Source: a virus
Lineage: Duplodnaviria > Heunggongvirae > Uroviricota > Caudoviricetes
IMG/VR virus record: IMGVR_UViG_2690316086_000018
Reading direction: 5' to 3' (one strand)
DNA: 52,397 bases
The notes under the pieces were generated by a model that saw only the letters and a program-made list of their open reading frames with translations, was not told the origin of the DNA and ran no database searches. The number at the start of each line of letters is the position of its first letter. Position 1 is the first letter of the stretch. This document shows, in pieces, positions 1 to 48,230 of this stretch. The position numbers and the translations under genes were made by a program.

Positions 1-219
1 ATGAAAGAAAATATTGAAACCAGCGTAAAACGATTTATCCGCGTTCCTGATGTTTTAAATCGAGTGGGATTCAGTCGCACGACCTTATATGAGCGTATTA
101 AGGAAGGGAACTTTCCAGACAGAGTAAAAATAGGTCCGAGGTGTGTCGCTTTTGTTGAAAGTGAGATTGATGAATGGATTGACTCGACTATTCGAAACTC
201 ACGCCAGAACGCTGCATAA
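1..219 (+). CDS. alpA: AlpA-family regulatory protein (excisionase-like HTH)
   Basis: 72-aa ORF; R-V-P-D-V-L-N-R-V-G-F-S-R-T-T-L-Y-E-R-I...G-P-R-C-V-A-F-V-E-S-E-I-D-E-W-I pattern typical of AlpA/Vis-like proteins; AT-rich context. Confidence 0.6.
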   Translation: MKENIETSVKRFIRVPDVLNRVGFSRTTLYERIKEGNFPDRVKIGPRCVAFVESEIDEWIDSTIRNSRQNAA

Positions 220-288
220 AAACAGATACAAGATCTCGTGTCGAACAGATAACTGTTCGCACAGGGCATCTTATTATCCTAAACAATA

Positions 289-591
289 ATGGAGAAGAAT
301 ATGAAGATAGAACTTATTACGACAAAACAGTTTATTGAACAAGCCGAATGTTATTTCAGGAACTATATGGACGGATTGCGGAGGAATGCACCAGATGATT
401 TTTATTATTTTATCAACAATAAATACAATATGAATGACATTATGGAAAGTATCATTAAAAAAACGAGATATCATTTTTACGATGACACAGAAGAAGGCAA
501 AAGGAATCGGATTTATGGAGAAGTAAGCCACAGTAAGGTAAAGCAACACCTTCGTCAGCTTTGGATTATCTATAAGTGTGTATACCGCTAA
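289..591 (+). CDS. hypothetical protein
   Basis: 100-aa ORF directly downstream of alpA on same strand; no recognisable motif. Confidence 0.35.
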   Translation: MEKNMKIELITTKQFIEQAECYFRNYMDGLRRNAPDDFYYFINNKYNMNDIMESIIKKTRYHFYDDTEEGKRNRIYGEVSHSKVKQHLRQLWIIYKCVYR

Positions 592-676
592 TACTGCAGC
601 ATTTCATTTTTAATATTAACCAAAAGGTAAAACTAATGAATACATTTAAGAATAAAAATACTAAATCTTTTATGTT

Positions 677-931
677 GTGTCCTTGCATATCTATGCGGAG
701 CTTTTTAACTCAAAGGATAAAACAACCAGCAATATGATTATAACGCATGTAATGGATCATGAGTTTGTCTTTAGGCTAATCGATCTGGCGATGAGAAATG
801 CTGAGAAACATCTTCTGAAAAAAGCATGGAAAAAGAATGCTGCTGAAAAACTGTCTGAGGTGGATTTTAAAGGGGTTAAGCAGGCATTAGCCAAAATGCA
901 TTACACTGTTCTGGCAGAATCAATATGTTGA
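677..931 (+). CDS. hypothetical protein (start uncertain)
   Basis: 84-aa ORF, same-strand run of small genes. Confidence 0.25.
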   Translation: MSLHIYAELFNSKDKTTSNMIITHVMDHEFVFRLIDLAMRNAEKHLLKKAWKKNAAEKLSEVDFKGVKQALAKMHYTVLAESIC

Positions 932-1004
932 TATGTTCTGACGTCTATCGGCCCCGTTATGGGGCTGAGAACAAATCTTATTTGTCTATCCAAGGAGCAA
1001 AAAA

Positions 1005-1247
1005 ATGATTGATGAATTTCATGTGATGTATATGTATAAAAAAATCCAAGCAGAAGCCGCAACTACCGACATCAAAACACTTGAACAGCTTTTGAAAAAG
1101 TTCAGGAGCGTGGTTCACGAACGTCGTGAAGAATACTATCAGGAAGTTGGTGAGAAAAAAGCGCGTAAGTTGAAAATGAAAAGAGCACAAAGAATGCTTG
1201 AGAAAATGGAATGTGACCGGGTCTCGCCAGAAGATCTCATTGACTGA
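1005..1247 (+). CDS. hypothetical Lys/Glu-rich small protein
   Basis: 80-aa ORF preceded by aaggag RBS at ~990. Confidence 0.4.
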   Translation: MIDEFHVMYMYKKIQAEAATTDIKTLEQLLKKFRSVVHERREEYYQEVGEKKARKLKMKRAQRMLEKMECDRVSPEDLID

Positions 1248-1284
1248 TAAGAGTTCTGTATAATAATGTATCTACATCAAAAAC

Positions 1285-1692
1285 ATGGAGGTGGTTATGG
1301 GCTGGGAGCTTCACATAGTAAGAACGGAACATTGGTTCGATAGCGCAAGTGTTCCAATCAGTAGTGAAGAATGGCTCCAGCTTGTTAATGATGATAAAGA
1401 ACTCTCCATAGATAACAAGAATGGTGATTTTTTTGCTCTATGGAGTGGTCAAAGTGAACTCGATGAACCTTGGCTTGACTGGAGTGATGGAAGGATTTCA
1501 ACAAAGCATCCTGACGAAGCCCTTTACTGTAAAATGTTGCAGATAGCTGAGAAGCTACATGCTGTAGTCGTTGATGAGGATGATCATAAATATTCGCTAC
1601 CAAGTGACCTGATGAATCCTTCATGGGCGAATTCATCACCAGTTGGTAAAAAACAATCTTTATGGGAAAAGTTAATTTCAAAACTAAAATAA
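1285..1692 (+). CDS. hypothetical protein
   Basis: 135-aa ORF; ggaggtg RBS before internal ATG at 1297. Confidence 0.4.
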   Translation: MEVVMGWELHIVRTEHWFDSASVPISSEEWLQLVNDDKELSIDNKNGDFFALWSGQSELDEPWLDWSDGRISTKHPDEALYCKMLQIAEKLHAVVVDEDDHKYSLPSDLMNPSWANSSPVGKKQSLWEKLISKLK

Positions 1693-1697
1693 TGTTC

Positions 1698-2168
1698 TTA
1701 TATAGTTTTCGTCGGGTCATTATCAACCACTGTTGCTTTCAAAGCATCAAGCTCTGAGATATAAGAGTCCAAAAGTTGAATGCATTCTCTTGCTAATTGT
1801 AAGGCATCATATATTTTGCCATCACATAAAATAGTATATTTGCATGTCATTACTTCACCACCACCTGTTCCTGAATACCAAGTAGATGTTTGTTTTTGTT
1901 TAGCTGCGATGTGAGGTTGGCGACTAGTTCGCATTGAGCGAGTTAATTTGCAATGTTTAGAACCATTAGCTAAATCAGCGCAAATCTTCAATGCTTGGTG
2001 TTCATTGATGAATATATCCACATGACTTGCTCTGATATTCAAAGTGTTAAGGTGAATGATCCAATCTCTAATATGATAGCAATGGATGAAAAATGAAATA
2101 ACATCATCATCGTAGTCTTCTTCGTTATGTCCTGAAGAAGAAATAATACCCGAGTAGATTTTCTCCAT
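1698..2168 (-). CDS. hypothetical protein
   Basis: 156-aa ORF, last gene of minus-strand run downstream of rep. Confidence 0.4.
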   Translation of the reverse strand: MEKIYSGIISSSGHNEEDYDDDVISFFIHCYHIRDWIIHLNTLNIRASHVDIFINEHQALKICADLANGSKHCKLTRSMRTSRQPHIAAKQKQTSTWYSGTGGGEVMTCKYTILCDGKIYDALQLARECIQLLDSYISELDALKATVVDNDPTKTI

Positions 2169-2273
2169 TCGATTAAGATATTTTTGCTTCTTTTAACCTG
2201 TTCCATTTATCGTTTCCATCATCAGTATTAACAATTGATAAGATTGCTAATATTATATTATGAAGGTTTGGAT

Positions 2274-2753
2274 TTAGATAGACATTTTCCTGCTCTTCTG
2301 GCTTGATGGTTCGAACTCTGACGAGATACGAGATAGTTGCTCAAGACTCTGTTCAATTGAACGCTGGAACTCCATAGCGGCTTCTGTGCGTTGTTTTATG
2401 ACTAAGGCTACTATTTCTTCATCACTCTTTTCTGAAATGGCCTTACGGTATAACACGCGTTCGTTAAATAAATCGAGATTACCAGTTGATCTCGCTGATG
2501 TGTTAGCTTTTGAACTGCTGATAGGATTTAACTCGTCAATAAAGTATTCAATAAGAGATCCTCTCTTTTTTTCAAGTCTGCGAAGTTCGGTATGTGCAGA
2601 CTTAAATTTTTGAGCCTTAACCAATGGAATGTCATCGGAACGCAGTTTGCGATATTCATTTCTGTATTCTTCTATAGAAATATGATTTTTTAGTTCTTTG
2701 ACTGTATTTACGTATTCGATTAAATCACTGTTGTCTGTTTTTACTTTTCTCAT
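2274..2753 (-). CDS. hypothetical coiled-coil protein
   Basis: 159-aa ORF immediately downstream of rep on minus strand. Confidence 0.4.
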   Translation of the reverse strand: MRKVKTDNSDLIEYVNTVKELKNHISIEEYRNEYRKLRSDDIPLVKAQKFKSAHTELRRLEKKRGSLIEYFIDELNPISSSKANTSARSTGNLDLFNERVLYRKAISEKSDEEIVALVIKQRTEAAMEFQRSIEQSLEQLSRISSEFEPSSQKSRKMSI

Positions 2754-2842
2754 AAGAAATACCTCGTAGATAAAATAGGGGATATGTTTATATTACGATA
2801 TATGGTGTAAGTGTCAAATGGCCTAATATATAGGCAAAAGTT

Positions 2843-3550
2843 TTATATGTTTTCTTCTTCATCAAACTCATCTTCTTGAGAATAATCATCAAATATGTTG
2901 TCTTCTGAAAAAGAGTCCCAATCAATATCCTCATCGGGTGTGGAAAGCAAAGGTTTATCATCTTCTTTATTGATTGATTTCTCTTCGTGGTTTTTAAATA
3001 TCCTATCTTTATAAACGGTGACGAATACGTCCTCGATGCCTTCACTGGTTGTTCTCAGCGACTTCTGAACATATTCTTTCCTTATTGGATTTAATGTTCT
3101 GTATTGGCCTTTCAGGAATAGATTGGCGTTTATTAAAGTGTGTTTACCGTCTTGAATAAGAATGCCTTTATTGATAAGTTTTTTCCAGCATTTGCACACA
3201 TTAGATTTGCTCATACCAAGCTCTTCTGCGAGTGCTGACTGAGATATACTGGCTATCAGATTCCCATGCTGCATGAGTTTACACAAACGGATCATTATTG
3301 TGTATTCAGCACCAGACATATTTTTACCAAGCTTTTCCAGATTATCGACAAAAGCATGAACATAGGCTATTCCCGGCTGTATATCCGAACTTCGTTCCTT
3401 TTTAATATTGACGGTTATTTTATCTTTTCGGTTTCTGTTATAAAAACTGTAAATCTCTAGTTTCTGTTTATCGGTAAAATCATTTTTGTTGATATAATCT
3501 TCCAATTGTTCACTACTTGAGGTCATTATTGTGTTGTAATCAATGCTCAT
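2843..3550 (-). CDS. putative iteron-binding replication initiator (winged-HTH, acidic C-terminal tail)
   Basis: 235-aa ORF with HTH-like segment ISQSALAEELGMSKSNVCKCWKKLINKGIL; AT-rich region and iteron array immediately upstream. Confidence 0.45.
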   Translation of the reverse strand: MSIDYNTIMTSSSEQLEDYINKNDFTDKQKLEIYSFYNRNRKDKITVNIKKERSSDIQPGIAYVHAFVDNLEKLGKNMSGAEYTIMIRLCKLMQHGNLIASISQSALAEELGMSKSNVCKCWKKLINKGILIQDGKHTLINANLFLKGQYRTLNPIRKEYVQKSLRTTSEGIEDVFVTVYKDRIFKNHEEKSINKEDDKPLLSTPDEDIDWDSFSEDNIFDDYSQEDEFDEEENI

Positions 3551-9397: not shown

Positions 9398-9826
9398 AAG
9401 GATACTGGATCGTTAAATGCCCCTGTTGCTTTGTAGAAGGTCAGAGCCGGGGCATGTTTGCACAGGTTGAATAACCACGGTTTTATATGATGTGTATCCG
9501 CAGTGGTATGTCATCATGATCAATTTATTGTTTTTTGGGCGGTCTTCTCTCATTGGGATGTCAACAGGAATGGCTGATGCTGCTATTAGCTTTCCGAGAA
9601 TTACTATCGTGGGATTTGTTTCTGGTAAAGCTATTTACTCTGATAATGTTGCGTTCAGGTGATTAATGTAGAATCATTTGTAATGACCCATGCTTTTTGT
9701 TACTAGCGTGGGTTTTTATAGATGTCCTTGTTTACAATCAGACTGTAAATAATATTATCTTTACATTTTGTTTGGTATGTGATAATGAATTTATTCCTGT
9801 CTTATGGTCATTGTTAAGGATTTTTT

Positions 9827-10795
9827 ATGAAGGATAGAATAAAAATAACAATCCCGTTCTCAGAAGAGAATAAAGCTTTCCTTGAGTTTGTTGATGCTTG
9901 GGATCAAATAATTCCAACATGCTATTTTGTCGATATATGTTGTGTTGGTAATATAAAAAATAGCGCTAAATATCTTCTCGAAGAAAATGTAGGTACGAAA
10001 AAATTTTATTTTATAAAATCATTAGAGAGAATAGACCTAAAGCATAACACAATTTCATATTTCCCAGCCTTGATGGAAAAAGTAAGTGATTTTTATAATG
10101 ATAAACCAATTCAGAGATTGAGAGAAGAAGCTAAAGAAGACCTTAATGCGCTGCGATGTTTTTTCAAAAATGTTAGAGTTATGGAGGATACTGATTTTAC
10201 TAACATGTATATTGAAGGTATGAAGTCTCATCACCCTGAAGTTGATGGTGAAAAATATCATCAATTTCTCTCCTTTATTAATGAAAGTGGAATAATCGAC
10301 CCTGTTTCTCCTGACGAAAGATTAGATTTTGTAAGGTTATTCTGTGAACAAGCAAATAGATTGACTCTTGATAAAAGAAGTGTTGTATTTGTTTCGTCTG
10401 TAGCTTGTATTTATGGATGTTTACCTGCAAGAAGATTAATGAAATTCAAACGAGATCCGACTAAATTCAATAGTAGTAACGTGTTGGCAGATTTGCAATC
10501 GGTAAGTCGAGTTGCTAGGTTGTCATCTGAAATCGAATGCACTGGAAGGTCTGCTTTCGCTAGATTCTCATATCTGACTGAGGATAATAACCTTAAAATA
10601 TTATCTGATTGTTTTTTTGTAAGGAATGTCGAGAGAGAAACTATACCAAATGGTATATCTAATAAACTAACTACAACCATAGATGGAAAAAGATTGTTTC
10701 CGGCTCTTTTCAATAGTGATGGTTATTTAATTAATGAGAAAGCAGAACAGGAGTTCAATGAACTATTAACGCTGTTAGGAGTCGATGTACCATAA
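9827..10795 (+). CDS. hypothetical protein, 322 aa
   Basis: AT-rich ORF with aagga RBS; convergent with AbiGi-like gene. Confidence 0.45.
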   Translation: MKDRIKITIPFSEENKAFLEFVDAWDQIIPTCYFVDICCVGNIKNSAKYLLEENVGTKKFYFIKSLERIDLKHNTISYFPALMEKVSDFYNDKPIQRLREEAKEDLNALRCFFKNVRVMEDTDFTNMYIEGMKSHHPEVDGEKYHQFLSFINESGIIDPVSPDERLDFVRLFCEQANRLTLDKRSVVFVSSVACIYGCLPARRLMKFKRDPTKFNSSNVLADLQSVSRVARLSSEIECTGRSAFARFSYLTEDNNLKILSDCFFVRNVERETIPNGISNKLTTTIDGKRLFPALFNSDGYLINEKAEQEFNELLTLLGVDVP

Positions 10796-10848
10796 ATTGA
10801 GAATGTGCTATATAAAAATAACTCTCTTAGCTGATTATGATATATTCT

Positions 10849-10886
10849 ATAGCCTTGTTTTATACTATGCCAAGGCTATATTTATT
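10849..10886. terminator. hairpin between convergent genes
   Basis: atagccttg ... caaggctat inverted repeat followed by A/T-rich run. Confidence 0.35.
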
Positions 10887-10891
10887 AATAA

Positions 10892-11656
10892 TTATAGATC
10901 ATCATTGTTCTGGGAAGAATAGAAAATTTTACTTATTAATTCGTTGCTGACCTCTAGGCCTTTCTTATCAAGATTTTTAATGAATGAACTTAATTGGCTT
11001 TTGTTTTTTAGTATTATATAGTTAATGTCATTTATCCCAAAATCAAGATGAATACTATTTATTTTATCATTATATTCATTCTTTTTTTCAGTGCTTTTTA
11101 TTTTACTGAGTAATGCTATTGGTATTATCCCCTCTTGGTGGGTAGGAACAAATCGCCACTCCATTTCATCTGCAAAACAATAGTCAATTTCTTTTTTGCC
11201 TTCTCTCGTTAGTGGTCCTGTATGATTCTTCATATAACGGAGTATATTTATCAAAGACTGATAATCATTATTTTTGGAATATTCATTCGCAATATCTTTA
11301 TCGTTCTTGAATTTTCTAATCTGCTGATCAAGTAAGGTGAATACATCCGAATATCTACTCATGTATAATACAGGGTTTAAATTGTTTTTTGAGGCCCAGT
11401 CGTCATTAAGACCAATTCCATAATGTCCATACTTCTTTGTATGTTCAGATAACAAAGATAGCCTGATATTACAAAAGGAAACCATTGGTATTCCAAAACG
11501 TCGAGCTACACCATCTTTATTATATATGGTCTCTCTGGCATATGAGGGCCGAAAATATCCATCAGTTAAAATTGATTCCAGCTTGGATTTTTTATCCGTA
11601 AAGTGTAAAAATGTTTTTGGATATAGACTTTTAGTCAATTTCATGAGCCTCGTCAA
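10892..11656 (-). CDS. possible AbiGi-like abortive-infection protein
   Basis: 254-aa ORF; N-terminal FLHFT...LESIL, IPMVSFCNI and YGHYGIGL motifs resemble the AbiGi family as I remember it; not verified by search. Confidence 0.4.
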   Translation of the reverse strand: MTRLMKLTKSLYPKTFLHFTDKKSKLESILTDGYFRPSYARETIYNKDGVARRFGIPMVSFCNIRLSLLSEHTKKYGHYGIGLNDDWASKNNLNPVLYMSRYSDVFTLLDQQIRKFKNDKDIANEYSKNNDYQSLINILRYMKNHTGPLTREGKKEIDYCFADEMEWRFVPTHQEGIIPIALLSKIKSTEKKNEYNDKINSIHLDFGINDINYIILKNKSQLSSFIKNLDKKGLEVSNELISKIFYSSQNNDDL

Positions 11657-11772
11657 TTAATAATATGAAATATTATATATCAAAATAGTTGCTAAAGGAA
11701 CTCATGACTTTGTTAATGATAATAACATCACTTTTCCCACAGGGTAATCATGGCATCCTTGTGCTTCCATAG

Positions 11773-12465
11773 TTATTTAAATCTTGAATTTGGCTGTTTT
11801 GATTTTTGTGATTGTTTACTACTATGTTCAAACAACATTAATGGTGTCACTTCTATATTGCTATCGGTAGAATTCTCTCCCTTACGAGGACGACTTGGGA
11901 AACGAACGGTCTTGTCATTATCTGATACGTTTCCACAGAAGTCTGCTTCTGATGATTTTTGGTCATTGTTAAATTTAGCTCGTTTTTCAAACTCTGAACG
12001 TGGAACATTGACACCCAACACTTCATCAAAGATATAGTTTTCTGCGATACGCTTATCATGATCAGCATCAGTGGTATCGGGCTTCCTTCTGGCCCATACG
12101 AATCTCTCTCTTATATATCCTACCACCAGTAGTGTGAAACGCTTAAACAAACTACTCTGACGCGGCTTAATCTGTTTCCTACTACTCATGGGAGCACGGT
12201 TCATCACTTTGGTGTTTTGAAGAGATGGGGTTTTCAATTTAGTGGATGCATTTGGTTCAGGAACAACCAGAACAGGGGATTTCTTCCCTGAAACATTTAC
12301 TTTACTGACCTTATTAGGATCACGGTAAGATTTTGCTGCTGGTCTTCTGCTTGTAGTTGCTGTTGCCACAATCGGCTGCTGTTCTTCTACTGTCGGGAAG
12401 TCAGGGATAACAATCTCTTCGGGTTCAGCAAGATGTGTAATCGTAAAGCTTCTGACATCAACCAC
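11773..12465 (-). CDS. hypothetical basic low-complexity protein (GTG start) just downstream of reconstructed mobA end
   Basis: 230-aa K/P/S/T-rich ORF; starts at GTG. Confidence 0.3.
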   Translation of the reverse strand: MVDVRSFTITHLAEPEEIVIPDFPTVEEQQPIVATATTSRRPAAKSYRDPNKVSKVNVSGKKSPVLVVPEPNASTKLKTPSLQNTKVMNRAPMSSRKQIKPRQSSLFKRFTLLVVGYIRERFVWARRKPDTTDADHDKRIAENYIFDEVLGVNVPRSEFEKRAKFNNDQKSSEADFCGNVSDNDKTVRFPSRPRKGENSTDSNIEVTPLMLFEHSSKQSQKSKQPNSRFK

Positions 12466-12515
12466 GATCTCAAGTGGTAGCTCACTGAATGTGGTGTATA
12501 TAGCGCGGCGATTTT

Positions 12516-12626: not shown

Positions 12627-13364
12627 TCATTCACTCTCTTTCAAACCAGTTTTAACTGTTTGTGGTTTTGGGTAAGGCTGGACTTTGAATAGCTTTGTGT
12701 TGAGGCGTTTTCTGGCCCTCTTGTTCAGAAACCGGATGTAACGAAACTGTCGGAACTTATGCACACTGGCTCTGTCGATATTAGCCCTCAGATGTTCACC
12801 TCGTTGTCCGCCTCGTTTAATGGCACTCCTGCAAATCTCGTGATACCACTCGCCATCAAGTTCATAGAATGTTGATTCATGGCTGCCTACATAATCAAAA
12901 TTGCTTGCCTGATACACGACACCAAGACAGCCACAACGCTCATCTGCAAACGACTGAACCCACTGTACCTGCGGATAAAGCTGCCTGATTAGCTTGAGCG
13001 CGTAACTGATTGCCCTTGATTCGGAGTTTCTCGGCATACAGTCATGCATCCATAGCCGGTTAAGCTCCATATATTCTCGGTTCTGCGTACCCGTTACGAC
13101 GCGTGCACCACTGTTTGGGTTAAGGGCGTAACCCCATTGCATTACGCCAACAAGTTCCCGTTCTGAAAATATACCCAGATGAAGGTAGGAATTATTTACG
13201 AAACGGTGGCTGTAATGTTTATTGACGATAACCAGTCTGGCCAGCCAGCAACTTATTGTCTCAACCCGCAACTCACGGGAGCCATAACCAACGATATTGT
13301 CGTTATAGCGAATAAGTTCAGGCGTGCTGATGATACGGGATGTGACTTGCTTTCTGTTCCCCAC
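12627..13364 (-). CDS. mom: Mom-like DNA modification protein
   Basis: 245-aa ORF overlapping the 3' end of a Com-like gene, last gene before prophage end, GATC cluster upstream: the Mu com-mom arrangement. Confidence 0.6.
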
Positions 13365-13518
13365 GACAGGATTTCCTTGTGTATGTGGGGTGCTCTGTGG
13401 CGCTCGGAGATGTGATTTGATTGAGGGTTTTACAGCGCGGACATTTTACTTCCAGATAACTGAAACTGGCCCGTGCCAGTAGCTTATTGCAGTGTCGGCA
13501 CCGTATGTTTCGATACAT
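13318..13518 (-). CDS. com: Com-like zinc-finger translational activator of mom
   Basis: [15 protein letters not shown]...EVKCPRCK...EHPT closely matches remembered Mu Com; start taken at internal ATG. Confidence 0.7.
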
Positions 13519-13565
13519 GGCCGCATAACCTCCTGCTTTGTTGTTGATGCCTTTCTCATGCAATC

Positions 13566-13703
13566 GATCGACAAAAACGATCGATTCGATTTGTTTAATT
13601 GATACAACAAATAGATTTAAAAGTCATCAACAATGATTCAGGGCGGTGATTATTTACTTAAAGAAACGAAGAGTTAGGTGGTGAAAACGATCATAAAATG
13701 ATC
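13566..13703. promoter_or_regulatory. GATC cluster upstream of com-mom (probable Dam-dependent regulatory region)
   Basis: GATC at 13566, 13579, 13689, 13700 embedded in ATCGATCG-type motifs. Confidence 0.5.
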
Positions 13704-13924
13704 ATTTTATTGACTTTTTATACAGTGAAGGTAGGATCGCGCGTATATGTAGTATGTTTCAAATCAACAGGATACTACATAAAAGGGAAACCCAGCATAG
13801 CTGGAACTATGCTGGGTCAATCTGTAAAAACTTGCATCAATGCTTTACTTCGAGCTCGTGGCGTATCCTATGATATTCCCCGGTCTCCTGTAAAGCAGAG
13901 ATGCATAAAAAGGAGATCTTTATC

Positions 13925-14095
13925 ATGGATAAAGAGCCTGTTTGCCCTGCCTGTAAGACTCCCTTACAGCTCATCTATCGCCGTTCTCGATCTCAAAATG
14001 GCAAGACATACAAACCAAAAAATGCTTCCTGTTTCAGGATGCTGATATGTCCTGCCTGTTCTCCCCGGAGGGAAAATACACAAAACGTGCATTAA
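13925..14095 (+). CDS. small zinc-ribbon protein (CPAC...CPAC), possibly Ogr/Delta-like
   Basis: 56-aa ORF with strong aaaaggaga RBS; two CxxC pairs; divergent from com. Confidence 0.3.
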   Translation: MDKEPVCPACKTPLQLIYRRSRSQNGKTYKPKNASCFRMLICPACSPRRENTQNVH

Positions 14096-14133
14096 CAAAT
14101 TCACCCGGCAGGGAAACCTGCCGGTCGGTATTG

Positions 14134-14379
14134 TTACATCATAGTACCGTCAGTTCCGGGCTGAACCGGCTCTGGTTGCTCTACGGGTTGAGGCTCATTT
14201 TCCGTGCTGTTTTCAGCCGGAGAACGACCAACCATTCGGGCCAGCACTTCATCAACATATGCGTCGATTTGTGCCTCAAAATCCTTGCGAACCTGCGCCT
14301 TCAGCACGCGGTTCACTTCTTCAGAATAAAGTGCCTGTTTGACAAGCTCTTCAGTAACCGTGCCTTTAATCTCTGGCAT
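14134..14379 (-). CDS. hypothetical protein
   Basis: 81-aa ORF with aaggag RBS; acidic/Pro-rich C-terminus. Confidence 0.45.
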   Translation of the reverse strand: MPEIKGTVTEELVKQALYSEEVNRVLKAQVRKDFEAQIDAYVDEVLARMVGRSPAENSTENEPQPVEQPEPVQPGTDGTMM

Positions 14380-14414
14380 GAATATTCTCCTTTCCTTTTC
14401 TGGTTCACAAAAAA

Positions 14415-14594
14415 TTAAATCTGACCGGAGTCTTTCGGCTGCGGCATTACAGCACCGCTTTTTATCTTTTCCTCGGCAGCTGCATCAATTTTATTTCGAA
14501 AATAATTGCGAATAATTTTATAACCACCGCTGACAAGCAACAGACAACAAACCACCGTGCAGAAATACAGCAGGCAGACGTTTATATATGTCAT
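14415..14594 (-). CDS. small membrane protein, 59 aa (not in ORF track)
   Basis: hand translation MTYINVCLLYFCTVVCCLLLVSGGYKIIRNYF...; GAGG RBS; one N-terminal TM helix. Confidence 0.3.
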   Translation of the reverse strand: MTYINVCLLYFCTVVCCLLLVSGGYKIIRNYFRNKIDAAAEEKIKSGAVMPQPKDSGQI

Positions 14595-14651: not shown

Positions 14652-16709
14652 TTATGCCGCAGGGGTATTAACCTCAAGGACAACGCTCTCAAAAGACACG
14701 CCATAAGTTGCCCCTTTGGTGACATCTGTCAGTGTCAGCGTATCTTTGGCAGGGGAAAGTGCATCTTTCACCATCTGGAATGCCTGGCCCGGAGTGCCAT
14801 CCAGCACAGGCGTTACCTGGGCACTTCCCGCCGTAAACTTCAGGACAAGTGTATGCCACTGGTTATTGTAGGCTCCAAATGATCCCAGTTTCGTATTCCC
14901 CCCTGTTTTATGGTGCATCAGATTTAACTGGCCGCCTGTTGTCTGGAGATAATACGCCATCAGGAACGGTGTGCCTGTACCACTCATGGTTACACCTTCC
15001 GGGACCGTATCGGTGTGGAGGTAAATACCCAGAGCAAACTGGCCTTCTTTTACTTCACCTGACAGACGGAATTTACAGGTCAACTGACCACCATGCTTCA
15101 GAAGTTCACCGGCTGCATCAGTTCCATGGGTAAGCGCCCAGGTTTTTCCGCTTTGTTTGGATACGGTCAACGCTTTACCTTCGTCCGTCAGCTGGATTGT
15201 ACCATCTGTAATTTTCCAGCCCTGAGCCGGGGCTTCTCCTGCTGATGCTTTAAGTGAAAGCAGCGTACGGAGTGACGGGGATGTCGGATGGGGGGACTCA
15301 CTGCCTCCTGGCTGACTACCTGTCGGCGCTTCCGGTTTCCCACCCGGCGCGGGCTGAGGCAGGGCTTCACCATCAGGGGCCACACCGGCAATAAATGCAG
15401 AGGTCAGACCTGCATATTTAAGAATTGCTGATGCAAAACGATCTGAGACCAGAAAACGGCGCGCCCAGGAGCTAAAATGGGTTGCCCTGGATGCTGTTGT
15501 CCAGTTGCCATCTCCCCGTGATTCCGCACCATAATACCCGGCAGAAGCGATATCCGGGTCGTGCTCCGGCAGGTTGGTCGCGGTTTTATTACCGAACTCA
15601 TCGTGCATCAGTGGAACAAAGTGAATGTTCTCGGAAGCCCGGTTTTTATATCCGCTATAAATGGTTTCATATGCCGCCGGGTTCTTCTCTTTCCAGTCAT
15701 AGGTTGTGTCACCACATAACCACGGCACACTGTCTGATGAACCACCAATACACTGACCGGAGAAAGCACCAAGATCCGCACGGAATTTTTTCACCATCGC
15801 AGTAAACTGGGCACCATGCTGGGCCGGGGTCGCTTTAAGGTCTCCTTCCCCCTGAATCCATACGACAGATAACAGCACATTCTTTGGATTCGCCTCAAGT
15901 GCCGCTTTAGTTCGACTGACAAGATCCTGATACAGTGGGGTATCCACTCCCCAGCGTAGTGACGCCTCGGCTGCACCACTTGCCGGATCGAATGAGCCAA
16001 CTGCGCCGGTTGTAAAAGCAGAGCCGCCACGGGCACAGGGAACCAGTAAAATCCCGGCATCAGCAGGAATCACCGGTAATACTTTTTTCGCAATATGAAG
16101 TCCCTGCCCCACACAACCATACTGCCCTTTTTTCAGGTCTGCTTTTGGATGGTTCAGCAGACTCATATTCTGAACATCATGAAGGCAGTGATCTGCTGGA
16201 ATGATTTCATTGTATTTGCAGGGAATACCTCCGGGGGTTTGTGTATTCCTGCGTGCCAGCTGCATAATACGTGGATCAGGACGATCATAAGAATCCGGAA
16301 GGGGCAACCCTTCACCATAAGATGAAGCATTGGACTGGCCGGCTATAACAATCACGTAATACCAGGAAGGGGAGCTGGAAGCCGTTTCATTTCCTGCCGG
16401 ACGGGTATGTGTTTCTGCATTATCCCAGTCTGACGGTTCAGTAGTACCGGCAACATCAGCACTTAACGGAATGACAGCACCAATACCCGCTCCGGTAATT
16501 TCCACGTTCGGATCACCGGATACTGGCCTTACCCACAGGCAATCCTGTGTATTAAAACTGATGAGACAGTCAGCAAATGTCATTCCTCCTTTCGTTTCAG
16601 CAGGAGGAAAGGGAGCCTCAAGAAATGCCGCTGTACCACCGGAAACTTTAACGGTAAAGTTTCCGGGCATTGATGATAGTTGAACCCATTTGGACGTCAT
16701 AATATTCAT
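14652..16709 (-). CDS. SGNH/SASA-type carbohydrate esterase-domain protein with C-terminal beta-sandwich-like domain (prophage cargo gene)
   Basis: 685-aa ORF with VIVIAGQSNASSYGEG (GQSN serine motif of sialate-O-acetylesterase-like SGNH hydrolases); lies between gin and com-mom. Confidence 0.6.
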   Translation of the reverse strand: MNIMTSKWVQLSSMPGNFTVKVSGGTAAFLEAPFPPAETKGGMTFADCLISFNTQDCLWVRPVSGDPNVEITGAGIGAVIPLSADVAGTTEPSDWDNAETHTRPAGNETASSSPSWYYVIVIAGQSNASSYGEGLPLPDSYDRPDPRIMQLARRNTQTPGGIPCKYNEIIPADHCLHDVQNMSLLNHPKADLKKGQYGCVGQGLHIAKKVLPVIPADAGILLVPCARGGSAFTTGAVGSFDPASGAAEASLRWGVDTPLYQDLVSRTKAALEANPKNVLLSVVWIQGEGDLKATPAQHGAQFTAMVKKFRADLGAFSGQCIGGSSDSVPWLCGDTTYDWKEKNPAAYETIYSGYKNRASENIHFVPLMHDEFGNKTATNLPEHDPDIASAGYYGAESRGDGNWTTASRATHFSSWARRFLVSDRFASAILKYAGLTSAFIAGVAPDGEALPQPAPGGKPEAPTGSQPGGSESPHPTSPSLRTLLSLKASAGEAPAQGWKITDGTIQLTDEGKALTVSKQSGKTWALTHGTDAAGELLKHGGQLTCKFRLSGEVKEGQFALGIYLHTDTVPEGVTMSGTGTPFLMAYYLQTTGGQLNLMHHKTGGNTKLGSFGAYNNQWHTLVLKFTAGSAQVTPVLDGTPGQAFQMVKDALSPAKDTLTLTDVTKGATYGVSFESVVLEVNTPAA

Positions 16710-16799
16710 CCTGTTCCTGAATAAACAGAATTATCATATCCACAGACCGATAAACGCCATTTTGCGTTAATTCAGTAAAGGCCCAACAAAGGGAGCGTC

Positions 16800-17360
16800 T
16801 TATTTTTCCGAAACGCTCGCAGGATAATAACGATAAAGGGTTGAAAGGCCGATATCAAAAATAAGTGCCACCTGTCTTCGACTGACACCCCCGGCCAGTA
16901 AACGCCCGACCTGCTCGTATTGTTCCTGCGTGAGACGACGGGGTCTGCCGCCGGTTCGTCCCCTTTCACGGGCAGCTGCAAGACCAGCCCGTGTCCGTTC
17001 GACAATTAATTCACGCTCCATTTCTGCCAGCGCACCCATTATGTGAAAAAAGAAGCGCCCCATGGGGGTTGACGTATCAATGTTGTCAGTAAGACTACGA
17101 AAATTTATCCCCTGTTGCTGTAATTCATCTGTCAGCGCAACAAGGTGGCGCATACTGCGCCCCAGCCTGTCCAGTTTCCAGACCATCAGTGTGTCACCGG
17201 GTTTTAGTTTCTTCAGTGCCCGCTTCAGTCCCGGCCGCTGTGTCGTTTTACCACTCATTTTGTCTTCAAAAATCTGCTCACATCCTGCACATTCCAGCGC
17301 ATTTCTTTGTAAACCGGTGTTCTGGTCATTTGTTGATACGCGTATATAGCCAATCAGCAT
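16800..17360 (-). CDS. gin: Gin-type serine DNA invertase
   Basis: MLIGYIRVSTNDQNTGLQRNAL...DRLGRSM...; near-identical in pattern to Mu Gin/Hin/Cin. Confidence 0.9.
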   Translation of the reverse strand: MLIGYIRVSTNDQNTGLQRNALECAGCEQIFEDKMSGKTTQRPGLKRALKKLKPGDTLMVWKLDRLGRSMRHLVALTDELQQQGINFRSLTDNIDTSTPMGRFFFHIMGALAEMERELIVERTRAGLAAARERGRTGGRPRRLTQEQYEQVGRLLAGGVSRRQVALIFDIGLSTLYRYYPASVSEK

Positions 17361-17414: not shown

Positions 17415-17440
17415 ATCCCTGAAACCTCGGTTTACGGGAT
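17415..17440. other. gix-like invertase crossover site (left)
   Basis: ATCCCTGAAACCTCGGTTTACGGGAT; core AAACCTCGGTTTAC matches the Mu gix core. Confidence 0.7.
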
Positions 17441-17785
17441 ACTGTAAACAGGGCCGCGAATGCCCTGCCATCGAACGGAACGGCTGTTGCAGCGAATAAA
17501 CTCGCCACTCCAAGAAATATTAATGGTGTCCCATTTGACGGAACGCAGGATATAAATATTACATCGGGGATGACGCAGTCTGTGGCTGACTCACGTTATG
17601 TTCAAAGCATTCGAAGAGGTTCAAGGTCAACGATTGGAATGCAATATAATATTTTTGAAGTTCCTGACGGATGCGTACTTACAGGGCTTGATGTCGCTGG
17701 TGATGGTAATGCAACGGTAACCGCATATTATCGACCTGTTCAGTTTCTGATAGATGGTTCGTGGAAAACAGCTTCCAGCGCATAA
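17423..17785 (+). CDS. alternative tail-fibre C-terminal segment (promoterless in current orientation)
   Basis: in-frame translation from the gix site gives NLGLRDTVNRAANALPS...RPVQFLIDGSWKTASSA, homologous to residues ~176-303 of fibre 18421-19332. Confidence 0.6.
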   Translation, partial: NLGLRDTVNRAANALPSNGTAVAANKLATPRNINGVPFDGTQDINITSGMTQSVADSRYVQSIRRGSRSTIGMQYNIFEVPDGCVLTGLDVAGDGNATVTAYYRPVQFLIDGSWKTASSA

Positions 17786-17864
17786 AAGTGCAGTAGTTCA
17801 AAAAACAGATTATCTGAATAAATATATGATGATTTTGTCTTTTCAACAAAAACAAGGTGAAATA

Positions 17865-18386
17865 ATGGAGCTTATTAACGTAAAACGATATTACCCGGAA
17901 CACAAACCCTATGGTGAGGATGTTCAGTATTTCCAGAGTGAGGACGGAAGGGATTTTTATGAATCTATCCCGCTTTTCACAAAGAAATACAAACTCTGTA
18001 TTTCGCCTGTAACGGGTATTATCTGCTCTGTTGCTGAAGATGTCTCTGCTTTATATCCGGCAGGTTTTACTGTTGTTGAAGTGGACGAACTGCCGGAAGG
18101 TGTGAATATTGACGGTAACTGGCAGTGTTCTGATGGCCTGATATCAAAGGTGCCGGTAAACTGGAAGACGGTTGCTGAAAAGCGTCGCTCATCGCTGCTC
18201 CAGGAAGCCAACGAAACCGTGGATGACTGGAAAACAGAATTAAAACTGGACATGATTAGCGATGAAAATAAATTACAGCTGACGCGCTGGATGGCGTATA
18301 TCCGACAGCTTAAAGAAATGCACTTTAATGATATTGCCAGTGAGGGGCATTACCAGGCGATTCCCTGGCCGGAAAAACCGGAATAA
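17865..18386 (+). CDS. tail fibre assembly protein (chaperone)
   Basis: MELINVKRYYPE...QLTRWMAYIRQLKEM...WPEKPE typical Tfa family; aaggtga RBS; track ORF starts at 17754. Confidence 0.85.
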   Translation: MELINVKRYYPEHKPYGEDVQYFQSEDGRDFYESIPLFTKKYKLCISPVTGIICSVAEDVSALYPAGFTVVEVDELPEGVNIDGNWQCSDGLISKVPVNWKTVAEKRRSSLLQEANETVDDWKTELKLDMISDENKLQLTRWMAYIRQLKEMHFNDIASEGHYQAIPWPEKPE

Positions 18387-18391
18387 TTCAG

Positions 18392-18415
18392 AGGGTGCAT
18401 TCAGCACCCTTTTCT
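18392..18415 (+). terminator. rho-independent terminator after tfa
   Basis: agggtgc-attca-gcaccct hairpin followed by TTTT. Confidence 0.55.
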
Positions 18416-18420
18416 GTGGT

Positions 18421-19332
18421 TTACACTGAACTTACCGTTCTCCAGGCATTATTAATATAAATCTGAACCGGGCGATAATAGACCCCACCGATATTGTCCG
18501 CAGACCGGGAGCCGGTTTCCTGCACGTTAATACCGGAAAGCATACAACCGGAAGGTGCGCTGTAATTCCATGATATTTCATTGCCTCCGGGTGAATGATA
18601 GCTCTGTGCTCCAAGCTGAACATTCTGTACATACCGGCCATCTGCGGTTGACTGCGTCATTCCTGACGTGATGTTGATATCCTGCGTTCCGTCAAAAGGA
18701 ACGCCATTAATATTTCTTGGGGTGGCGAGTCTGTTTGCTGCCACGGCGGTTCCACCCGATGGCAGGGCATCAGCAGCCTTATTTACCGTTTCCCGTAAAC
18801 CGACGTTATCGATAAAAGCGCCTTTATCCGGAATGTCTGCGCCGTTCTGCTCCCTGCGCAGGTAACGGTTATCACCTTCGCTTTTGCTGTAAACATCCAG
18901 ATTATTACGGGCGGTTCCCGCATTCTCCAGGTCGGCAAGGTTCTGATCCTTCGCCAGAGCATTAACGTCACCGGGACCAAGACTGTTTTTTGTGGCAAGC
19001 GCCCCAAGACCAAGATAACCACGGGCAAGACGCTGGGCTTCCGCACCGGCATCAGCAATTTCTTTCAGGTTGTTTTTCCGGGAAAAGGCATTCGCAGCGA
19101 TAATGGCTTTAATGGACAGCGTAAGCTGGTTTAACTGCGCCTTATCCGGCTGAATACTGGCTTCAGCCAGAATATTCAGCAGTTCGGCCTGGAGAATATT
19201 CAGCCAGTCCTGACCAATCCAGCTGATACCTTTTTGTCCGTCACCTTCGGTAAACCAGGTGGTGGTATTACTCTGCGCCGGTGCCAGCGCAGGCATATTC
19301 GCCACGCCGGAATTATTATCAACATGAAACAT
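18421..19332 (-). CDS. tail fibre protein (constant N-part plus currently attached variable C-part)
   Basis: 303 aa; gix site inside the gene at codons ~176-184 (IDNVGLRETV). Confidence 0.8.
   Translation of the reverse strand: MFHVDNNSGVANMPALAPAQSNTTTWFTEGDGQKGISWIGQDWLNILQAELLNILAEASIQPDKAQLNQLTLSIKAIIAANAFSRKNNLKEIADAGAEAQRLARGYLGLGALATKNSLGPGDVNALAKDQNLADLENAGTARNNLDVYSKSEGDNRYLRREQNGADIPDKGAFIDNVGLRETVNKAADALPSGGTAVAANRLATPRNINGVPFDGTQDINITSGMTQSTADGRYVQNVQLGAQSYHSPGGNEISWNYSAPSGCMLSGINVQETGSRSADNIGGVYYRPVQIYINNAWRTVSSV
18790..18815. other. gix-like invertase crossover site (right, inside tail-fibre gene)
   Basis: TTCCCGTAAACCGACGTTATCGATAA, ~22/26 identical to remembered Mu gix TTCCTGTAAACCGAGGTTTTGGATAA. 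Confidence 0.75.
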
Positions 19333-32696: not shown

Positions 32697-32872
32697 TCCG
32701 GCAGCATAGGCCGGGAATTTTCAGGGCGGGTTTTGCGGGATTTCAGGAAGTGCTTCCAGGGGAAAAATACAAAGGCGCTTCACGCAGATTTTAAAGCCCG
32801 TTAAATACAGGTTAGAAAATCACGACACGCGCCTGAAGGGGGTAAGGTAATGCATTTGCATACCTTAAACAA

Positions 32873-40598: not shown

Positions 40599-40669
40599 TG
40601 TTACGCTGTCTCATGATGTTCTCTGAGTCAGCGTAACGGTGAAGGAAAGGCGGCAGGCTTTGCGGAATA

Positions 40670-41095
40670 TCAGAAAAGTGGCGGTTGCGTTCTTGCCAGA
40701 TGCAGACGGCGCTGTTCACGTATGACGGTATAAATCTGGGTTTCTGACATCCGGTAATGGCGGCGAAGGGATTCAATTTTCTCGCCCCGGTCCCAGCGCG
40801 AAAATATCTCATTGTTTCGCAGCTCGGCAAAGAGAGATTCCCCGACCGGCAGGTAATAACCCCGTCCGCCCATATAGGCTGCCTGAGCCGCAGCCACCTT
40901 GCGTGCCAGTTTACCGGCCAGTACCGGCTCAATCCCCTGACGCTGAAGTTCTGCGCCGGTGACTTCAACCAGTTCTGACAGGGTCCGCGGCCAGTTCTTT
41001 TTGAGAACATCATCAGGGATGTCATCAAGGCGGTCGATAAGGGCGTGCAGTTGCTCACTGTCACCACCAAACATGCTCATCTGAGTTTCTGCCAT
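40670..41095 (-). CDS. mor: Mor/C-family transcriptional activator
   Basis: 141 aa with C-terminal HTH (MSETQIYTVIREQRR); between gemA-like and lysis genes. Confidence 0.65.
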   Translation of the reverse strand: MAETQMSMFGGDSEQLHALIDRLDDIPDDVLKKNWPRTLSELVEVTGAELQRQGIEPVLAGKLARKVAAAQAAYMGGRGYYLPVGESLFAELRNNEIFSRWDRGEKIESLRRHYRMSETQIYTVIREQRRLHLARTQPPLF

Positions 41096-47073: not shown

Positions 47074-47301
47074 TTAGCTGACTTGTTTCGCACCAACAGA
47101 ACGGCATATTCCGCTGTAAACGTCTGTCGCACCTTCTCGATCAAGTCCGGCAGATATCACCATTCGTGTGCGGTCATTAAATTCAAAAAGTAAATCGCCA
47201 CATTCTTTATTTTCGGCCAGTGAAATCACCTTCACGTTATCGAAATTAACCAGGTAAAAGCGTCCGTAAATATCAGGAATATTAAATACCGCCATAATCA
47301 C
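47074..47301 (-). CDS. hypothetical early-region protein (kil-position)
   Basis: 75 aa immediately downstream of B. Confidence 0.35.
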   Translation of the reverse strand: MIMAVFNIPDIYGRFYLVNFDNVKVISLAENKECGDLLFEFNDRTRMVISAGLDREGATDVYSGICRSVGAKQVS

Positions 47302-48230
47302 ACCTGTGAGAGTAATTCAGGGTTGGTATAAACCTCTTTAAAGGCCGCATTAATATGTTTTTCTGTCAGCGCCGCGCCTTCACCGCTGGCGGTGAGCCAC
47401 GCCTGGTTAAGCGTATGTGTCAGAACGCGTAACGCTCCCGGCTTTTCAGCGATAGCCTGCATGACGGCCAGCTCGGCCTCACCACTGATCCCCCACGCCC
47501 TGGCAATGGCCAGCACATCCGCCTTTTTGGCCTTGCGAAGTTGTTTTGTACGGGCAAGACGGCTGAACAGGCGCGATAAATCATCAAAGGTGCGGCGTCC
47601 ACCTTTAAACAATCCGCGCGGGTTACCAATAAGCACCATCCCGATCCCCGTGGCGTCCTGAATTGCCCGGAGTTGCTCCAGACCGTCAATACCAAGATGA
47701 TCCGCCTCATCCACAATAACCAGTCCACGCGTTCCCATCAGGCGACGGCGGATGGCGCGGGATAATGCCCCTTTGTTCGCGCGGGTGTAATCAATCCCCA
47801 GCGCATCGGCCAGCTCCAGCAGACACTCCGTGACGCTGGAGTGCGCGGGTGACAGGGTGATCATCCAGGTGTTTGGTTGCTCCTGGCAGTAATTACGGGC
47901 AGTGGCCGTTTTACCCACACCCGGTACGCCCACAATAACGTTAATACAGCCCATCAGACGAACCGCCTGAAACAGTGCGCGCAGCTCCTGGACTGTCTGC
48001 GTTTCCACAAACTGCGGCGGTTCCGGCAGTGCGCTTTGTTTATTCCAGTTCTCATACCAGGAACGCAGGGAAGCAGCCACAGCAGCGTTATCGCCTTTAT
48101 ATTTTCCCTTACGGAAAGCCGATAATGTGCCGTCGGAAATTCCCGCCTCTCTGGCGATGGCATACTGCGTCAGTACGCCGCCATCAATAAGTTCATCAAT
48201 GGTCTTGATTACATCGTTAATATCAGTCAT
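47298..48230 (-). CDS. B: MuB-like AAA+ ATPase (transposition target-DNA activator)
   Basis: near-collinear similarity to Mu B: GDNAAVAASLRSWYENW...LPEPPQFVETQTVQEL...GVPGVGKT...GLVIVDEADHLG...KPGALRVL. Confidence 0.9.
   Translation of the reverse strand: MTDINDVIKTIDELIDGGVLTQYAIAREAGISDGTLSAFRKGKYKGDNAAVAASLRSWYENWNKQSALPEPPQFVETQTVQELRALFQAVRLMGCINVIVGVPGVGKTATARNYCQEQPNTWMITLSPAHSSVTECLLELADALGIDYTRANKGALSRAIRRRLMGTRGLVIVDEADHLGIDGLEQLRAIQDATGIGMVLIGNPRGLFKGGRRTFDDLSRLFSRLARTKQLRKAKKADVLAIARAWGISGEAELAVMQAIAEKPGALRVLTHTLNQAWLTASGEGAALTEKHINAAFKEVYTNPELLSQV

Follow-up and report, generated by a model that had tools for sequence, protein, structure and literature searches.

What does a large esterase-like gene do between the invertase gene gin and the com-mom genes of a Mu-like prophage of Escherichia coli? 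The question is raised by a stretch of 52,397 nt (IMG/VR record IMGVR_UViG_2690316086_000018; hereafter the window), in which an initial annotation placed an open reading frame (ORF) of 685 amino acids (aa) at 14652-16709. The ORF is exact: it is intact, lies on the minus strand and is identical to the coding sequence annotated by RefSeq in a 100%-identical genome. Our data assign its product to the NanS-p family of sialate O-acetylesterases, which are known from lambdoid phages. The enzymatic identity is ordinary and is already covered by annotation, since public sources name the exact sequence 'sialate O-acetylesterase / DUF6645 domain-containing protein', and it occurs on 524 contigs. The enzyme family, the three-domain layout and the lambdoid context are known. 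The Mu-borne form, with an alternative N-terminal domain (N-domain), a putative Mu-type late promoter and a bounded cassette in which the body of the protein is exchanged, looks undescribed. The gene and its modules are as follows.

14652..16709, minus strand: NanS-p-type sialate O-acetylesterase gene, 685 aa, ATG start, three globular modules and two disordered linkers
16464..16688, minus strand: N-domain, residues 8-82, a small all-beta cupin-like barrel in the place of DUF1737
16371..16463, minus strand: disordered linker 1, residues 83-113, predicted confidence (pLDDT) below 50, ending in ASSSPS right before the catalytic domain
15405..16370, minus strand: SASA/SGNH catalytic core, residues 114-435, matching 3PT5
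15276..15404, minus strand: disordered linker 2, residues 436-478, Pro/Ser/Gly-rich, pLDDT below 50, unalignable between alleles (12-31% identity)
14655..15275, minus strand: C-terminal jelly-roll lectin-like domain (DUF6645), residues 479-685, matching 6YP6, pLDDT about 90

The family assignment is based on several comparisons. Pfam found SASA (PF03629) at residues 119-315 (E=1.6e-13) and DUF6645 (PF20350) at residues 537-647 (E=8e-26), and PHROGs gave phrog_143 (E=2.8e-273). Among solved structures, residues 108-432 matched E. coli NanS/YjhS (3PT5, E=3.7e-110) and residues 481-682 matched the crystallised C-terminal domain (CTD) of NanS-p (6YP6, E=1e-41). These results bear out the initial annotation, which had described an SGNH/SASA esterase-like protein with a GQSN motif and a C-terminal beta-sandwich-like region; the latter is the DUF6645 jelly roll. 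GQSN occupies residues 124-127, and all the NanS-type SGNH blocks are intact, namely S126 (GQSN), RGGSAF (227-232), QGEGD (286-290) and R408/H411. S126, G228/G229, Q286/E288/D290 and R408/H411 are invariant in every aligned Mu-borne and lambdoid homologue, and block IV reads RATH in the window protein compared with RASH or RSSH in published forms. The full-length AF2 (AlphaFold) model has globular modules at residues 8-82, 114-434 and 479-682 with low-confidence linkers between them, and it contains no beta-helix or coiled-coil trimerisation module. No signal-peptide-like stretch or membrane anchor was found in the 685-aa sequence, a point that the initial annotation had listed for checking. 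The CTD is of a divergent type, 61% identical to that of a lambdoid NanS-p from a Shiga toxin (Stx) 1a phage and about 40% identical to the 933W/phi24B type; the proposed sugar site has four aromatic residues, and three of these are retained (F558, Y563 and Y587). By tblastn, homologues with 50-61% identity turned up in 353 phage records, nearly all from lambdoid phages, Stx phages among them. Two homologues have unusual structures. P0117 (752 aa) is a DUF1737-type NanS-p whose C-terminus runs on into a phage tail-collar domain (PF07484), which could reflect an unusual fusion with a tail-fibre module or else a chimera produced in assembly or annotation. P0045 (707 aa), a lambdoid-type NanS-p, has an internal tandem duplication of about 90 residues in the SASA core (the segment WMQGEFD...TNAP occurs twice), which may be real or an assembly artefact.

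The N-domain sets the Mu-borne form apart. Three lambdoid NanS-p proteins score 1e-15 to 4e-18 for DUF1737 (PF08410), whereas Pfam gave no PF08410 match in the window or M3 proteins, and the N-terminal regions of the Mu-borne and lambdoid forms are only 11-20% identical. Residues ~8-82 of the window protein are confidently predicted to form an all-beta barrel (pLDDT 85-91). This barrel matched no Pfam family at E<=1; the fold is cupin-like and generic, and no virion protein matched it significantly. In a search with the full-length protein, the matches with about 99% coverage all lacked PF08410, and DUF1737-bearing matches covered only about 84% of the query. The N-domain is an unrelated replacement of DUF1737, about 75 residues long, in the Mu-like lineage. 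In phmmer and profile searches it was seen only at the N-termini of esterases from E. coli, Shigella and Salmonella. No stand-alone copies or other fusions were found by a word-index search, an exhaustive phmmer search of 1.84 billion representatives and a profile search. One 1445-aa match (P0006, nine stretches) is an Ala/Gly-rich repeat protein and was judged compositional.

The N-domain has at least five subtypes, which are 28-97% identical to that of the window. The gene that carries it lies in the same slot of a Mu-like prophage in all ten contexts examined, which were the window, L001, L002, L005, L006, L009 (Salmonella), L010, L011, L012 and L013. Loci without gin retain a remnant of the gin 3' end, so that gin was lost secondarily there. 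The L009 contig stops within the esterase gene, and the comparison there covers the locus up to that point. This Salmonella enterica contig also has two small ORFs (58 and 87 aa, no Pfam match) at 9426-9910, between the invertase and the esterase. The dN/dS ratio of the N-domain was 0.05-0.10 in close pairs, and distant pairs had a pN of 0.26 compared with a pS of 0.75. Such ratios indicate purifying selection on the N-domain, and all three domains of the esterase are under it.

The rest of the protein behaves differently. Between the window prophage and that of O157:H7 FRIK944, identity is 96-100% on either side of the gene but 26-76% from ~16,400 to ~14,377. This exchanged cassette of about 2 kb consists of the esterase core, the lectin domain and DUF1378. 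Its left edge is at codon ~113, precisely at the junction of the linker and SASA, and its right edge is at the start of DUF826. Synonymous divergence was 0.11 in the N-domain and saturated in the adjoining SASA region; this is recombinational replacement and not rapid local evolution. Among proteins with N-domain subtype A (97-100% identical), the SASA cores are 67-69% and the CTDs 34-38% identical. The FRIK944-type CTD is 78% identical to the 933W type. Esterase body types thus cross between the Mu-like and lambdoid phage families, as judged from these identities.

N-domain DNA was found in about 205 of 5426 complete E. coli genomes (~4%), at 246 places and at most four per genome. The window allele is present in about 38 genomes, and several O157:H7 genomes carry the gene. 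A recent transfer from a lambdoid phage was considered and rejected: megablast gave no DNA match of >=85% outside Mu-like contexts, and the same slot is occupied in a Salmonella Mu-like prophage with an N-domain only 28% identical. The esterase module is an old, conserved resident of this Mu-like (Sp18-type) lineage and not a one-off insertion. The view of the initial annotation that the gene is inserted cargo is therefore correct in that the segment is accessory; the segment is not one gene, however, but a three-gene module shared with lambdoid phages, and it is an old feature of the lineage. Composite prophages were also seen. In L002 (LC727881.1, 4645-16083), an Stx2c-converting lambdoid phage harbours a Mu-like phage of this lineage that brings a NanS-p allele of its own, and a Mu-like phage is likewise inserted inside an Stx1a phage (LC727895). 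These Mu-in-lambdoid composites are about 93 kb and carry two different nanS-p-type genes side by side; they are an obvious setting for cassette exchange.

How the gene might be expressed was approached by aligning the regions upstream of the esterase across diverged loci and then searching the window for the element found. The candidate promoter consists of CTGAATTAACGCAAAA, a gap of about 21-22 nt and TATGAT, with no -35 hexamer. The -10-like TATGAT ends 23 nt ahead of the esterase ATG, and the conserved element is some 55 nt upstream of the start codon. In 8/8 E. coli loci the esterase is preceded by a TAT(G/T)NT hexamer at a constant spacing of 22 nt, despite diverged spacers. The element copies and the hairpins that follow the gene are as follows.

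16733..16779, minus strand: candidate Mu-type (C/Mor-activator-dependent) late promoter, with a T-rich/CTGAATTAACGCAAAA element at 16760-16775 and the -10-like TATGAT at 16733-16738
32703-32746, minus strand: element copy with one mismatch, candidate PI equivalent, in the gap that precedes the gene for the Mu-like I protease
40630-40673, minus strand: element copy with three mismatches, candidate Plys equivalent, upstream of the lysozyme gene
14105..14124, minus strand: GC-rich hairpin CCGGCAGG-TTTC-CCTGCCGG, 10 nt past the DUF826 stop codon, scored as terminator-like in L010
13789..13818, minus strand: stronger terminator-like hairpin (13-bp stem and T-run), which separates the cassette from the mom regulatory region

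The three sites have in common TTnCTGAWAT..CGCAAA, then 22-23 nt and TA(T/C)G(A/C)T, with no -35. The lysozyme gene is just downstream of a gene for a Mor/C-family activator (40670-41095). Matches to the 16-mer with three or fewer mismatches are expected 7.5 times window-wide, and the argument is positional: for random matches to land, correctly stranded, in both of two given 100-nt regions upstream of genes, the probability is of the order of 1e-4. The copies at the protease and lysozyme genes read CTGAWAT..CGCAAA-N22/23-TAYGCT; they occupy the positions of PI and Plys in Mu and are thus candidate equivalents in the window prophage. A clear PP equivalent was not found in the window. In published Mu late promoters there is a -10 hexamer but no -35, C binds an imperfect dyad whose centre is at -43.5, and the region from -52 to -34 is required (PMC2582627). 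The esterase upstream region is similar to the Mu late units (Plys, PI, PP and Pmom, with C as the activator) in its -10 without -35 and its element at about -52 to -34. It therefore seems that the esterase promoter is of the Mu C/Mor-dependent type. The recognition sequence TTnCTGAWAT..CGCAAA belongs to the window lineage, and its three copies are a candidate for the motif that the Mor/C-family activator of the lineage would recognize. A generic sigma-70 scan of the gin–esterase gap gave nothing above chance. A TTGATA-17-TATCGT pair in the gin 3' end was tried as a promoter and rejected; it is conserved as coding sequence or gin remnant and is degenerate in M3. The hairpin at 14105..14124 likely ends the transcription unit, and the esterase, DUF1378 and DUF826 genes would form a separate late unit. 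Mu has no late unit between gin and Pmom, whereas the window prophage has a candidate one.

The two genes that follow the esterase belong to the same module.

14415..14594, minus strand: DUF1378 gene, 59 aa with a hydrophobic N-terminal segment and a charged tail (Pfam PF07125, E=9e-24)
14134..14379, minus strand: DUF826 gene, 81 aa, acidic, the final gene of the module (Pfam PF05696, E=3e-15)

The DUF1378 gene is inside the low-identity cassette and was exchanged along with the esterase body, and the DUF826 gene is outside it and is 98-100% identical between alleles. In the lambdoid phage PhiR12_2, NanS-p is followed by DUF1378 and DUF826 in the same order, ahead of holin S. A tblastn search with DUF826 gave few phage matches, and this one lambdoid example confirms the gene trio. 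The DUF1378/DUF826 pair has been mentioned for Stx2a phages (PMC10462455). The esterase, DUF1378 and DUF826 genes are thus a three-gene accessory module common to the Mu-like lineage and lambdoid phages.

The element that carries the module is a complete Mu-type E. coli prophage within the window. It encodes MuA (48302..50392) and MuB (47298..48230), a Mor-family activator, GemA, lysozyme, a Mu-like I protease and a virion-morphogenesis protein, and Mu-type head, tail and baseplate genes were found, as was Gp45/46/48. The ends of the prophage are at ~12495-12499 and 51613; in a comparison of the target-site duplication the 5-bp flanks agree at 4/5 positions, which places the ends to within about 5 bp. 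In other strains the same prophage is at different chromosomal sites, as expected of a transposable phage. The initial annotation had noted an extra segment compared with canonical Mu. This is the case: the gin–com gap is 94 bp in phage Mu (NC_000929), where the gene is absent, and about 3.2 kb in the window. The extra segment contains the three genes of the module and also a spacer of about 570 bp with the terminator-like hairpins and the mom regulatory region. The genes and control region on either side are as follows.

16800..17360, minus strand: Gin-type DNA invertase (Resolvase and HTH_7), 75% identical to Mu Gin
13318..13563 (alternative extent 13318-13518), minus strand: com
12627..13364, minus strand: mom
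13599..13738, minus strand: mom control region downstream of the esterase cassette, with GATC at 13689, 13700 and 13735

In Mu, Pmom is under Dam/OxyR/C control (PMC2582627 for the dependence on C). By analogy, the mom control region appears intact downstream of the esterase cassette, and a half-site promoter candidate, CTGAAT...-21-TATCAA (13599-13641), precedes com with a spacing that matches the other late-promoter candidates.

Several other features of this region were observed. In L012 and L013, a DNA cytosine methyltransferase (PF00145, 10474-11526) takes the place of mom after com, and the same arrangement is present in strain 90-3040 (megablast match H115). A different DNA-modification gene therefore occupies the same com-controlled slot in some relatives. 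ORFs on the plus strand at 13698-14418, antisense to the cassette/com spacer, include a 64-aa zinc-ribbon-like peptide with CxxC...CxxC (for example at 13901-14095). The antisense ORF is a frameshifted hypothetical gene in the RefSeq annotation of the identical genome (L001, 20134-20597) and encodes an intact 154-aa protein in FRIK944 (L006, 4136-4600). On the other side of gin, the window has a G-segment-like invertible region at 17423-18807 with 158-bp inverted repeats (17423-17580 and 18650-18807, 83% identical). It contains only one fibre-assembly gene (17754-18386, plus strand, Caudo_TAP) and one alternative fibre C-terminus (17570-17785, plus strand), and, as the segment is now oriented, no chaperone gene runs in the same direction as the fibre gene (18421-19332, minus strand). 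The same prophage is present in L012 and L013, with this segment in opposite orientations, indicating that inversion is active in the lineage. Just beyond the prophage end is a low-GC flank (9827-12465) with an AbiGi-family gene (10892-11656, minus strand) and two neighbours without a Pfam family (9827-10795, plus strand; 11773-12465, minus strand). This flank may be an abortive-infection or defence islet that received or adjoins the Mu-like phage.

Comparison with known NanS systems indicates what the Mu-borne form shares and what it does not. The lambdoid NanS-p proteins have the same SASA/SGNH core with identical catalytic blocks (67-68% identity), the same DUF6645 jelly roll, disordered linkers of the same kind and DUF1378 and DUF826 following. 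They also have no signal peptide and are late genes, as the window gene would be. They differ in having DUF1737 at the N-terminus instead of the unrelated beta-barrel of about 75 residues. The carrier is a lambdoid phage for the known forms and a transposable Mu-like myophage here, the position is between Q/stx and holin S in the former and between gin and com-mom in the latter, and the promoter is of the pR'/Q antitermination type in the former and putatively Mu C/Mor-dependent in the latter. Sp18, the Mu-like prophage of O157 Sakai, is reported to be intact, efficiently packaged and not mitomycin-inducible (PMC2669165), so the induction signals of the Mu-borne form would differ from those of lambdoid phages. 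The NanS-p enzymes that have been tested come from prophages of O157:H7 and O104:H4; they have esterase activity on Neu5,9Ac2, permit growth on it and de-O-acetylate mucin O-glycans, and nanS-p of 933W is a late gene co-induced with stx (PMC8065619). The catalytic domain is also homologous over its whole length to chromosomal NanS (YjhS, 3PT5), with the Ser/His blocks conserved. Chromosomal NanS is a single-domain protein of about 330 residues in the chromosomal sialic-acid regulon; the window protein adds the N-terminal barrel, two linkers and the lectin-like domain, and is phage-borne. The gp84 protein of phi24B is reported to be abundant, to decorate the capsid and to undergo proteolytic processing; its anchor is the N-terminal DUF1737, a hexamer of which sits on the central hexon (T=9 capsid), and SSP motifs have been proposed as its processing sites (preprint 10.64898/2026.04.10.717836). 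The window protein has the same layout, in which a small module at the N-terminus is followed by a linker containing an SSP-type motif, an esterase, a second linker and a jelly roll. The N-terminal module of gp84 consists of a helix and three strands, whereas that of the window protein is a predicted all-beta barrel. Esterase tailspikes and depolymerases have a domain at the N-terminus that binds the particle and, after it, a body that is a trimeric beta-helix or an SGNH tailspike; neither a beta-helix nor a module for coiled-coil trimerisation is present in the model of the window protein. The searchable literature contained nothing relevant on Mu-like phages together with nanS or O-acetylesterase; Rangel 2016 and Saile 2016 are outside its coverage and could mention it.

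We consider it likely that the gene encodes a late-expressed NanS-p-family enzyme that de-O-acetylates mucin sialic acids after lysis. This reading builds on the observed family membership, catalytic blocks, architecture, conserved position, N-domain swap, cassette exchange and promoter-like architecture. We infer the enzymatic specificity from tested homologues that are 67-68% identical in the core. The SGNH/SASA core would strip O-acetyl groups, chiefly 9-O-acetyl, from sialic acids, and the flexible linker would tether it to the jelly-roll lectin-like domain, whose expected role is to direct the enzyme to glycans. Since the module would have an activator-dependent, Mu-type late promoter and terminator hairpins of its own, production of the enzyme would be confined to lytic growth. 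Without a signal peptide, the enzyme would be released when the phage lyses the cell, and it would then turn the Neu5,9Ac2 of gut mucin into Neu5Ac, which surviving sibling lysogens could use as a nutrient. Several points weigh against this reading. NanS-p activity has been shown for lambdoid alleles only. The window allele is the most divergent examined (core 67-68% and CTD 38-61% identical to lambdoid forms), it has local substitutions relative to the tested enzymes (GQSNASS, PCARGG and QGEGD), and the fourth aromatic residue of the proposed sugar-binding site is absent. The promoter assignment is deduced from sequence, and the composite CGCAAA-N21-24-TAYGMT, with three occurrences in the window compared with 0.16 expected after shuffling, was defined post hoc, which makes this statistic optimistic. 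No terminator was found in the 90-nt gin–esterase gap, and read-through from gin is possible. The conserved, selected N-domain, in turn, would have no role in a simple model of a soluble enzyme released at lysis.

The last point leads to a possible, though doubtful, role as a virion component, in which the N-terminal barrel would dock the esterase on the Mu-like particle, at capsid hexons or at a tail or fibre site, and the particle would display the esterase and lectin to bind or process mucus or cell-surface glycans. Like DUF1737, through which the homologue gp84 decorates the phi24B capsid (preprint 10.64898/2026.04.10.717836), the N-module tracks phage type: the barrel is in Mu-like prophages only (10/10 contexts) and DUF1737 in lambdoid forms only. 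The N-domain stays 97-100% identical while the bodies swap, as is typical of virion-anchored modular proteins, and it is under purifying selection. The long disordered linkers and the SSSP motif at the N-linker resemble gp84, the structural and lysis operons have promoters of the class to which the putative late promoter belongs, and in L010, which lacks gin, the gene is directly after the fibre-assembly gene on the same strand. However, recombination within the conserved SASA-coding region alone would also retain the N-domain with no need for selection, and the generic barrel fold gives no functional clue; a virion role is rated as doubtful for these reasons. DUF1737 forms also span lambdoid phages with different head types, so that any specificity of N-domain for capsid is putative. 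With the same reserve, by analogy with gp84, the barrel might be a second, independently evolved virion-docking adaptor that tethers an exchangeable esterase and lectin to Mu-like myovirus particles. The initial annotation had suggested a second receptor-binding or depolymerase protein; a virion-associated role is plausible from the phi24B homologue and the lineage-specific N-module, but a role as polysaccharide depolymerase or receptor-binding protein fits poorly.

We regard it as improbable that the esterase modifies or binds a receptor by de-O-acetylating bacterial O-antigen or capsule at adsorption or release, like esterase tailspikes. Phage esterase tailspikes do exist in G7C and Vi phages (cited in PMC8065619). 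The gene adjoins the host-range (fibre/invertase) region, its CTD is hypervariable between alleles as in receptor-binding proteins, and its relative P0117 has the tail-collar domain. There is also a weak PHROG match to the 'tail protein' family phrog_25867 (E=1e-6), but the match is confined to a part of the esterase fold. The nearest relative of the catalytic core is NanS, which is sialate-specific, and typical hosts among the E. coli that produce Shiga toxin (STEC) are not known to display O-acetylated sialic acid. The model lacks a beta-helix or trimerisation module, and the same body types are shared by prophages of the podo-, sipho- and myovirus types, whose adsorption machineries are unrelated. 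Lysogenic conversion, in which the prophage would express the enzyme to alter the surface polysaccharide of its own lysogen, was also proposed in the initial annotation and is very unlikely. In its favour, the gene is accessory and is found next to com-mom at the end of a prophage, it lies immediately downstream of gin with no terminator found between, and in Mu gin is expressed in the prophage state. Yet the protein has neither signal peptide nor membrane anchor, the promoter-like element upstream is of the late class, the NanS-p family acts on host sialoglycans, its tested members using mucin sialic acids as substrate rather than polysaccharide of the bacterial surface, and the lambdoid homologues are late genes co-induced with stx (PMC8065619). 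A late-expressed enzyme released at lysis to act on mucin sialic acids remains the preferred reading.

NanS-p esterases, which strains have in several copies, are believed to help STEC to live on the O-acetylated sialic acids of mucin. Transposing Mu-like prophages add further NanS-p copies, in about 4% of complete E. coli genomes, many of them STEC. The single prophage of this type studied in this respect was not SOS-inducible, and the esterase cassette seems to be under the control of the Mu late cascade; NanS-p output would then depend on more than the induction of Stx phages. If the N-domain is indeed a virion-docking adaptor, NanS-p proteins would primarily be modular, particle-displayed devices for binding and processing mucus, with lectin domains shuffled between phage families to retune glycan specificity and anchors matched to the type of virion. 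The contrast between a phage-type-specific N-module and shuffled enzyme and lectin bodies is a handle on the question of whether NanS-p is mainly a bacterial nutrition factor or a glycan tool displayed on the virion.

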